DNA from: an uncultured Planctomycetaceae bacterium
Lineage (GTDB): Bacteria; Planctomycetota; Planctomycetia; Planctomycetales; Planctomycetaceae
Direction: 5' to 3'
NCBI GenBank assembly: GCA_963813715.1
Contig: CAWFAK010000016.1
Location: 256,001-320,000, forward strand
DNA: 64,000 bases
Shown: in pieces, positions 44,999-49,510 of the stretch
Layout: each line of letters begins with the position of its first letter
How positions within the stretch are numbered: the first letter of the stretch is position 1
Program-made: the position numbers and the translations under genes
The notes under the pieces: model-generated
Told to the model about the DNA's origin: nothing
Database searches by the model: none
Seen by the model: only the letters and a program-made list of their open reading frames with translations

Positions 44999-46860
<1,862 letters not shown>

Positions 46861-46977
46861 CGCTTGGCGCGACCCCCAGTCGCCCCCTCGGCACCCAAGG
46901 TGCGTCCGCGGTTGATGGTATCTCGCGAGTTCGACGCGCGCACCGGTCCATGGTGTAGAATAGGTGGGGGAGGATCT

Positions 46978-47331
46978 ATGAAATTTGACGAATGGCTATC
47001 CAATCTTCCAATCCACCAGACGCCGAAAGGCGCCCGGCTCGATCTACGGCTGTACGTTTACCCGGACGGACACGGAGATTTCTGCGCACAAGATGAGACC
47101 GGCCGAGTTTGCGCGAATCCGCAGCCCGTTAACAATCCGGCTGAGGCGCGAGATGTCCTGGAGAGAATCTGGGACCGGGCGATGACGCCCAAGGCAGGCT
47201 CGGAGGCCTCCGCGACGCAGCCGCCGACTCTCGCGGCGCAGTTCGCCGACGTGATCGGAACAGTGCCGGACCTTCCAACCGACATGGCGCAGCAGCATGA
47301 CCATTACGTTCACGGCGTTGCCAAGTCATGA
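46978..47331 (+). CDS. Putative antitoxin
   Basis: GGAGG RBS and TAGAAT at 46956; C-terminal DLPTDMAQQHDHYVHG motif of the kind found in antitoxins preceding PIN genes; ATGA overlap with the toxin. Confidence 0.7.
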   Translation: MKFDEWLSNLPIHQTPKGARLDLRLYVYPDGHGDFCAQDETGRVCANPQPVNNPAEARDVLERIWDRAMTPKAGSEASATQPPTLAAQFADVIGTVPDLPTDMAQQHDHYVHGVAKS

Positions 47332-47732
47332 GCCCCGTGTTCGTCGACTCGTTTTACTTCTTCGCGATTCTAAATCCGGCCGACGCGGCGCATGGGGACG
47401 CAGTCGAGTTCTCGAAGCGACTTGCCGCTCCGCTGGTGACGACGACATGGATCGTGGCCGAGCTCGCCGATGGGCTGGCACGCAGTTCAAGTCGGAGCAC
47501 GGTCAGGCGCGTCGTGTCGAGCTTCCGAGCTGTCCCCGCCAACGAAATTGCGGCGACAACGGATGATTTATTCGAGCGCGGGCTGGAGTTGTACCACTCA
47601 CGCACAGACAAACATTGGTCGCTGACCGATTGCATCTCGTTTGTCGTCATGGCGGAACGGGGCATTCGCGACGCACTCACCGGGGATCATCATTACGAGC
47701 AGGCAGGGTTCACGGCCTTGCTGAAAGCGTGA
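47328..47732 (+). CDS. vapC: VapC family PIN-domain toxin
   Basis: VFVDS.YFFA, TTWIVAE, WSLTDCISFVVM and ALTGDHHYEQAGF. Confidence 0.92.
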   Translation: MSPVFVDSFYFFAILNPADAAHGDAVEFSKRLAAPLVTTTWIVAELADGLARSSSRSTVRRVVSSFRAVPANEIAATTDDLFERGLELYHSRTDKHWSLTDCISFVVMAERGIRDALTGDHHYEQAGFTALLKA

Positions 47733-47854
47733 CGGTGGAGTGAAGTCCGCCGCGAAAAAGTAGATTTCAGCGGAGCGGTCGCGTCCACGGTGGGCATCTC
47801 GCCGCGGAGCGTCTACAATTCGTCGAAAACACGGCGCGCTCCAGGTCTCCGTTC

Positions 47855-49258: not shown

Positions 49259-49498
49259 GTGAAACACATCGCGTTGGAATCCGAAGACGATCACGTGAAG
49301 CAGTTCGTGCTGTCGTTGCCGCGCGACTCAGAAGGCTCGGTCCTCGAGCTCGACGGCAAACCGTTGGCGCGAGTGATTCCGATCAACGGAGAGCATGCTT
49401 CGTTCGACCCCGAGAAGTTGCGGGCGGCGATCCTGGCTCGTCGCGACGAATCACGTCGAATGAACGACGATTGGGAACACGCGGAACGCGGTCAGTAG
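49259..49498 (+). CDS. Small hypothetical protein, possible orphan antitoxin
   Basis: GSVLELDGKPLARVIP is Phd-like; acidic C-terminus; AT-richer upstream region; no toxin follows. Confidence 0.45.
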   Translation: MKHIALESEDDHVKQFVLSLPRDSEGSVLELDGKPLARVIPINGEHASFDPEKLRAAILARRDESRRMNDDWEHAERGQ

Positions 49499-49510
49499 GT
49501 GACTGCTGAT

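Follow-up and report, generated by a model that had tools for sequence, protein, structure and literature searches.

How did a small toxin-antitoxin pair come to lie between two exact copies of the end of a housekeeping gene, and does the duplication mark the attachment site of an integrase? The question is raised by the junction of glmS and ispH in the genome of an uncultured Planctomycetaceae bacterium, of which the window analyzed here is a stretch of 64,000 nucleotides. An earlier note on this DNA had proposed an 18-bp attachment core for a site-specific integrase. The data presented below indicate that the repeat is likely the worn-down scar of a recombination-driven insertion rather than an integrase attachment site.

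The repeat and its cargo

The glmS gene, encoding glutamine-fructose-6-phosphate aminotransferase (44999..46860, plus strand, as are all features of the locus; Pfam GATase_6 and SIS), ends in AGCGTGACGGTGGAGTGA, which comprises its last 18 nt with the final codons and the stop (46843..46860) and recurs exactly at 47726..47743, the two copies lying 883 bp apart. The exact duplication that the earlier note had reported is thereby borne out at both positions. A search of the 7.49-Mb genome allowing up to two mismatches returned no third match, and none of 100 shuffles of the window contained any match with up to one mismatch, which rules out a chance repeat. The similarity runs on imperfectly for about 12 bp beyond the stop, extending over 39 nt at 77%. 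In the left, live copy this extension occupies 46861..46872 and agrees at 11 of 12 bases with the empty allele of the closest relative (metagenome loci L031/L034), while the right, orphan copy of the glmS tail as a whole spans 47726..47755.

The right junction is reproduced by assembled contigs of two sequencing runs from different studies: a 1088-bp contig of run X1 spans 46728-47804 with nine substitutions and an 11-bp insertion relative to the window, and a 151-bp contig of run X2 spans 47664-47814 with no differences. The evidence from sequencing runs consists of the assembled contigs of four runs, the best-matching of which could be the source sample; yet X1 and X2 belong to separate studies and X1 differs from the window, and an assembly artefact is ruled out by their contigs. 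The genome (G000) is 82.6% complete and carries numerous frameshifts, one of them within glmS, where a single 1-bp gap at about 45549 relative to metagenome relative L031 splits the gene into two frames and is probably an assembly error. Frameshifts are also present in several other genes, both nearby and elsewhere, which suggests long-read assembly errors.

The 865-bp insert consists of a 117-bp leader followed by two ORFs of 117 and 134 aa. Past the repeat extension, the leader (46873..46977) contains a TAGAAT hexamer (46956..46961) and a GGAGG motif (46969..46973), both recognized by eye, and it could not be aligned with the leader of the cassettes in G003 and G006. The promoter-like region of the earlier note thus retains its motifs, but the promoter scan gave no call there and the promoter function is putative. 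The 117-aa ORF (46978..47331), a likely antitoxin, shares an ATGA overlap with the 134-aa ORF (47328..47732), a VapC-like toxin that matches the PIN-domain family PF01850 at 26.9 bits (cut-off 23.6) and, weakly and under its cut-off, NF047959.

No Pfam or NCBIfam family matched the 117-aa ORF. Its C-terminal part, of about 40 aa, resembles small proteins preceding vapC homologues elsewhere, some of them with a weak AF2212-like N-terminus, and its N-terminal part, of about 77 aa (46978-47210), is a different, unnamed domain. Among 12 weaker antitoxin matches outside this cassette type, seven directly precede a largely full-length vapC homologue. Judged by its gene layout, with a PIN toxin gene downstream of a small overlapping gene that is the predicted antitoxin, the cassette would be a type II VapBC-type pair. 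The N-terminal antitoxin domain was also observed without the C-terminal part in G185 and G174.

The right copy of the repeat supplies the end of vapC, namely the last base of a Lys codon, an Ala codon and the TGA, as the earlier note had described. Downstream of it lie a conserved, sigma-70-like ispH promoter (47791..47819), kept in filled and empty alleles, and ispH (LytB, PF02401; 47855..48802), the native neighbour that directly follows glmS in empty relatives. Further downstream, after a DUF2007 gene, a 79-aa ORF (49259-49509) with no Pfam match looks by eye like an isolated antitoxin-type gene.

The glmS-ispH junction in relatives

The junction exists in filled and empty states among close relatives. 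Four of the 12 genomes of the genus are filled (G000, G002, G003 and G006) and eight are empty, with ispH about 75-130 bp behind glmS; a metagenome scan with the ispH promoter returned four loci, all of them empty. The one-copy sites that the earlier note had suggested seeking are thus found, as is its second expectation, different cargo at the same site, here toxin-antitoxin-like, in a second genus (g25). Among the six genomes of that genus, two are empty, one carries a DUF433-DUF5615 pair with no repeat, two have in common an unnamed pair of convergent genes (with the repeat present in one genome and lacking in the other), and one has another neighbour. The convergent pair, observed at L058:412-1279 (G035) and in L077 (G187), consists of genes of about 145 aa with no Pfam or NCBIfam matches; a toxin-antitoxin or defence role for it would be a guess. 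A further observation is that G011 (L055) has two tandem 14-bp near-copies of the glmS terminal sequence after the stop, with no cargo between them.

The two states are intermingled. Two of the empty metagenome loci (L031/L034), mutually identical over the parts compared, are the closest relatives seen (97.2% in glmS and 98.3% in ispH), and the filled G002 (94.5%) is more distant than they are. In the tree, the empty G009 is sister to the filled G003, with the filled G006 outside, and the 13-row phylogeny of glmS and ispH requires at least four changes between filled and empty (gains or losses), all forced by starred branches. Furthermore, both states are present in run X1, as a filled contig (depth 10.3) and as a joint (depth 14.3) that skips 883 bp, from 46861 to 47745, and run X4 holds the other empty type, matching the L031/L034 allele, so that two kinds of empty allele exist. 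Runs X2 to X4 have little or no cover of the cassette interior, which says nothing on its presence.

The pair itself may also travel. The antitoxins of G003 and G006 are 96.9% identical, above the identity of glmS (90.8%) and ispH (92.2%) in the same two genomes, which points to lateral spread, and G005 carries the same pair (antitoxin 69% and VapC 66% amino acid identity) at an unrelated locus with no glmS copy. The earlier note had named, as an outcome that would speak against it, relatives with the pair at unrelated loci without the repeat and no empty or variable glmS sites; G005 provides the first part of this, but empty and variable glmS sites do exist.

Duplicated glmS tails in relatives measure 82 bp at 90% in G003, 102 bp at 91% in G006 and 71 bp at 89% in G035, from the other genus, so that repeats across glmS sites amount to 18, 71, 82 and 102 bp with identities of 89-100%; the far copy of G002 is degenerate. 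Because relatives carry degenerate copies of 71-102 bp of the same scar, the 18 bp of this genome are interpreted as a remnant, and the right copy is likely the trimmed and displaced old glmS end. These lengths, together with the absence of any tyrosine recombinase match within 140 kb of glmS, leave the proposed 18-bp core unsupported. The dependence of the toxin ORF on that core does not appear to be by design either: in G003, vapC has a TAG stop of its own located 66 bp ahead of the repeat, and in G006 it is cut after about 14 nt and reads on into the copy, indicating that the junction joining vapC to the repeat in this genome arose later. Overall, the outer ends of the far copies cut into the cargo at different points, 14 nt into vapC in G006 and in the last vapC codons in G000 and G002.

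The far copy is followed by the glmS-ispH spacer known from empty alleles and then by the ispH promoter. Compared with the empty G009 allele over 82 positions, the far copies of G003 and G006 match at 78 and 79 and the live copies at 76 and 75, respectively. In the closest empty allele (L031/L034 and run X4), the 12 bases behind the stop are of the left type, which counts against a simple rule whereby the far copy is always native. G000-type and G003-type cassettes share an inner boundary at about +11 to +13, an observation also compatible with a fixed site or a single old event.

Recombinase searches and orphan gene tails

The insert contains no integrase or transposase, and no tRNA was found in its locus (L001). 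Across this genome, PF00589 gave 11 matches, all about 146 kb or more from glmS, with the positive control matched in every one of 14 genomes. Six of these recombinases were used to build a profile, which gave a single match across the window and loci L001-L209, in L065, where it adjoins a tRNA-Val; the integrase beside glmS with the same repeat that the earlier note had envisaged was not found in these loci. This profile is narrow and many of the glmS loci reach just 1.5 kb downstream, so that a distant integrase is possible there; serine recombinases were checked through Pfam scans of called ORFs, and at 82.6% completeness a recombinase could be missing from the assembly.

At the level of the family, the glmS C-terminus was matched in 340 of 398 genomes, 28 of them with more than one match. 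Orphan glmS tails adjoining glmS occur in three of the 340 (G003, G006 and G035), with cargo of at most 1.2 kb in all three, in a protein search that is blind to repeats as short as the one in this genome. Other second matches were rejected: those in G076, G030, G266, G072, G359, G115 and G177 turned out to be paralogues with frameshifts, partial copies far from the main gene, fragments at contig edges or duplicated contigs, and the remainder were classed as paralogues solely by the length of the open frame or the position on the contig. The G030 copy (G030:C1:1202399-1203535, L195) is a 1,147-bp partial glmS, 98.5% identical and 3 Mb from the main gene, with sugar-modifying genes alongside and no integrase match. 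Six viral contigs matched the glmS-end pattern, and three of them have integrases, located beside a tRNA-Thr that lies between glmS and the integrase; the duplicated tail is absent from the fetched flanks of these contigs. Searches of the openly accessible literature on glmS integrases and islands yielded no description of an integrase that targets glmS.

Tn7 does target glmS, generating a 5-bp duplication and having TGT/ACA ends (PMC11014353). The cassette has no TGT/ACA ends, no 5-bp duplication and no terminal inverted repeats, and Tn7 is refuted at this site by the missing transposon ends together with the repeat length in relatives. TniQ gave no matches in this genome and likewise none in 14 control genomes, a search that had no working positive control.

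The same kind of scar is present elsewhere in the genome. A self-comparison yielded 2111 repeat pairs spaced 150 bp to 15 kb apart, and removal of clustered, multi-copy, paralogous and intragenic pairs, keeping scores of at least 50 bits, left 75 direct and 6 inverted strong, isolated, low-copy pairs. The 33 direct pairs with a coding flank were inspected and sorted by eye in this one genome, and 15 of them, distributed over 14 loci, are orphan tails extending up to or across the stop codon of the gene, with lengths of 44-212 bp and spacings of 0.2-6.6 kb. The others end 56-222 bp before the stop (five), are orphan gene starts (two), represent paralogues or internal repeats (nine) or are unclear (two). 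An exact-match scan of gene ends returned mostly noise.

The duplicated tails belong to genes including metH, cysE, a MoxR ATPase, an aminotransferase, a kinase, a DUF1501 gene and nusG, and among the genes carried at these other loci are an amine oxidase, a decarboxylase, BlaI/BlaR1 pairs and an arsR-methyltransferase cluster. A scan of 74 of the 79 ORFs called at 20 fetched loci detected no integrase between the copies. A 25-bp repeat outside the 14 loci (G000:C17:3756-4650, L096) has a serine recombinase as its flanking gene; this direct repeat overlaps the 3' end of the large recombinase gene and encloses a small HTH ORF. At metH, DUF1501, cysE, IDO, the reductase, the kinase and glmS, the similarity stops at or near the stop codon (within about 12 bp), and the decaying far copies are 77-96% alike upstream of it. 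At another locus (G000:C9:680463-684238, L090), a BlaI/BlaR1 pair is flanked on both sides by copies of a 159-bp repeat, which takes in the ends of two convergent genes, comEC being one of the two. With the same scar at 14 other loci, glmS is not singled out as the integrase hotspot suggested by the earlier note.

Relatives give a polarity to some of these loci. At metH, all five relatives searched lack the insertion and resemble the far copy, TGA included, in the sequence behind the gene, whereas the live copy ends in TAA and continues into foreign sequence. The aldo-keto reductase gene has two far copies in this genome, forming a serial array of one live and two orphan tails with differing cargo (G000:C12:298068-304862, L086); in G002, 85 of 86 bases of the stop and post-stop sequence agree with the first far copy. 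The first cargo recurs in G003 at 93.6%, next to two orphan tails particular to that genome, and G003 and G009 each have an array of their own at this gene. Behind a C5 gene with a sugar-hydrolase domain, the downstream gene directly adjoins in six of ten relatives, and G006 and G009 have tails of their own, of 155 and 161 bp, around other cargo.

At DUF1501, the cargo is shared by three of five relatives (G002, G003 and G009), in which no repeat was detected, and identity to G002 is 89-94% in the gene and 93-99% across the cargo. Such repeat-free cargo, behind DUF1501 in these genomes and behind glmS in G187, is as expected of donors. In G002 (L174), the two tails of the aminotransferase gene are both retained, separated by only some 40 bp, which indicates that cargo can go while the scar stays. 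Diagnostic sites at metH, DUF1501 and cysE show mixed patterns, and a donor origin of the live copy was not seen there or at the reductase, where both copies carry G000/G002-type, lineage-specific alleles over 190 bp. The flanks of relatives offered no clean empty allele for the MoxR, M42 peptidase, kinase and cysE loci.

Origin of the scar

We consider that the cassette probably entered behind glmS by means of a circle and a single homologous crossover, with no integrase involved. In the proposed sequence of events, DNA of a relative carrying a glmS end and the cargo would have closed into a circle, the circle and the donor both being presumed, and entered by one homologous crossover, leaving the old glmS end stranded on the far side. 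The far copy may later have been trimmed to 18 bp, fusing vapC onto it; repeated loss or spread would follow from recombination, either between the repeats or between flanking core genes, and toxin-antitoxin addiction could stabilize the cassette. This route is ranked first because it has an experimental counterpart in E. coli, where linear DNA with one-sided homology gave a partial lacZ duplication by recircularization and a single crossover in 56 of 60 clones, against four events of homology-facilitated illegitimate recombination (HFIR; PMC3240628). The partial gene-end duplications obtained there, of 109-950 bp in 14 sequenced clones, likewise flank foreign DNA, vary in length and are RecA-dependent and integrase-free, but they arose in laboratory conjugation with a selected plasmid (PMC3240628), whereas the repeats described here are shorter, decayed and located in natural Planctomycetota. 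Homology-based additive entry fits the variable outer ends, the inner end near the stop, the many target genes, the repeat-free carriers and the lack of a recombinase, and the bias towards 3' ends may reflect selection for keeping native promoters on both sides. A point against it is that repeats of 18-44 bp are short for RecA, so that trimming must be assumed; furthermore, no circle or circular junction was found in the assembled contigs of the four runs.

HFIR, in which linear DNA would insert with no circle, one end pairing within glmS (within ispH if the donor was empty) and the other joining at microhomology with a short tail left or brought in, is unlikely. It would account for the arbitrary outer ends of the far copies that cut into vapC in G006, G000 and G002, and has been proposed for sequential displacement arrays in Vibrio (PMC5361080); comEC, which speaks for the circle route as well, is present in this genome, although competence could only be conjectured from it. 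The first 35 spacer bases beyond the repeat, compared by eye, differ from the closest relative at 12 sites in G000 and three in G002, so that this piece may be foreign. Yet HFIR usually produces a deletion of about the size of the insert and microhomologies of 3-10 bp, and was the rarer outcome in E. coli, with 4 of 60 clones (PMC3240628), and at the present junctions microhomologies are not reliably readable in the decayed copies. The reading of the earlier note, an island remnant or a non-autonomous cassette of about 0.9 kb mobilized in trans, with the replacement glmS 3' end carried on attP, is clearly unlikely and not supported, given the variable repeat length and a site with no integrase. 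In its favour, such integrases leave a displaced old end, two cassette types have similar inner boundaries, run X1 contains a clean allele shorter by 883 bp, and any of the 11 PF00589 matches could act in trans; against this stand the distance of the nearest one (about 146 kb), the tRNA-Val beside the only match of the recombinase profile, the tRNA-Thr beside the viral integrases and the lack of a duplicated tail on their contigs, the rarity and small cargo of glmS fragments adjoining glmS in the family, and the two empty-allele types, which imply different crossover points. The 14 other loci, moreover, would need one integrase family per gene.

Host-templated target duplication, whereby foreign DNA is captured at a break and repair copies the end of the recipient's gene to both sides, is quite improbable. 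The lineage-specific alleles shared by both aldo-keto reductase copies over 190 bp would agree with it, and double-strand breakage has been suggested as a common cause of long target duplications (PMC2853133); the similarity, however, ends near the stop, where orthologue homology would cease and where a break has no reason to end it unless selection alone sets the boundary, and the cargo here includes no restriction enzyme. Least credible of all, to the point of being negligible, is a Tn7-like insertion at attTn7 or a chance or assembly repeat: only the choice of glmS as target speaks for Tn7, and none of its end structures is present.

Among described arrangements, the glmS structure fits the class termed insertion with long target duplication (Nobusato et al. 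2000, as cited; Furuta, Abe and Kobayashi 2010, PMC2853133), the restriction-modification cargo apart. The class shares with it a small insert, long direct repeats of variable length that in some cases overlap a gene 3' end, an empty site in relatives and the lack of mobility genes (PMC2853133). At glmS we find an empty site, an insert below 20 kb and no integrase, transposase or tRNA target, and the repeat exceeds 30 bp in relatives (71, 82 and 102 bp), with 18 exact bp in this genome. The class was described for restriction-modification genes with repeats above 30 bp (PMC2853133), that cargo being a search criterion of the 2010 study and not a structural one, whereas the cargo here is a VapBC-type pair, with metabolic or regulatory genes at other loci, and the repeat is a coding tail ending near the stop and worn to 18 exact bp.

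The elements e14 and phage 21, whose insertion at icd leaves icdC, exemplify integrases that restore the end of a protein-coding gene. SGI1 at the trmE 3' end, with an 18-bp site (PMC6531882), is a further case, and such elements resemble the present scar in having a live replacement end on one side and the displaced old end on the other; they differ in having their own integrase and one fixed site, whereas here no integrase was found in or beside the element, the outer boundary ranges over 18-102 bp and the scar occurs at many unrelated genes.

Minimal mobile elements of Neisseria likewise consist of small variable cargo between conserved genes, without mobility genes. Islets made up only of toxin-antitoxin genes are similar in having small variable cargo between conserved genes, no mobility genes and a patchy distribution among close relatives, and spread by homologous recombination at flanking core genes; a duplicated gene tail does not belong to their description, in which the term "direct repeat" is absent (PMC13617665). 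Direct repeats, mostly below 30 bp, flank 10-18% of small variable segments in three species (PMC2884548). In Vibrio arrays of T6SS effector-immunity genes, new cargo beside a conserved anchor also pushes older material downstream with no integrase, as do the serial copies at the aldo-keto reductase gene, but the anchor there is a toxin scaffold and immunity genes are displaced, whereas here the displaced material consists of housekeeping gene tails (PMC5361080). A search of the openly accessible literature on transformation in Planctomycetes yielded no description of an orphan-tail footprint. What is distinctive here is the frequency of the scar in one genome together with the filled/empty polymorphism.

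A short exact duplication of a gene 3' end is thus not enough to call an attachment site; the present one is what is left of a long, decaying tail. A bolder proposal, which we regard as doubtful, is that host-run, integrase-free docking behind stop codons may be a main route of accessory genes in this soil and peat lineage, the glmS cassette being a toxin-stabilized mini-circle that still excises and re-enters by gene-tail recombination, with filled and empty alleles co-occurring in one sample. If insertion by a circle and a crossover is true, orphan tails would provide a countable record of integrase-free gene gain at no fewer than 14 other loci, with order and polarity, and island finders that require an integrase would miss such gains. 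The glmS-ispH junction is a natural polymorphic locus at which circle-plus-crossover insertion and HFIR can be told apart.
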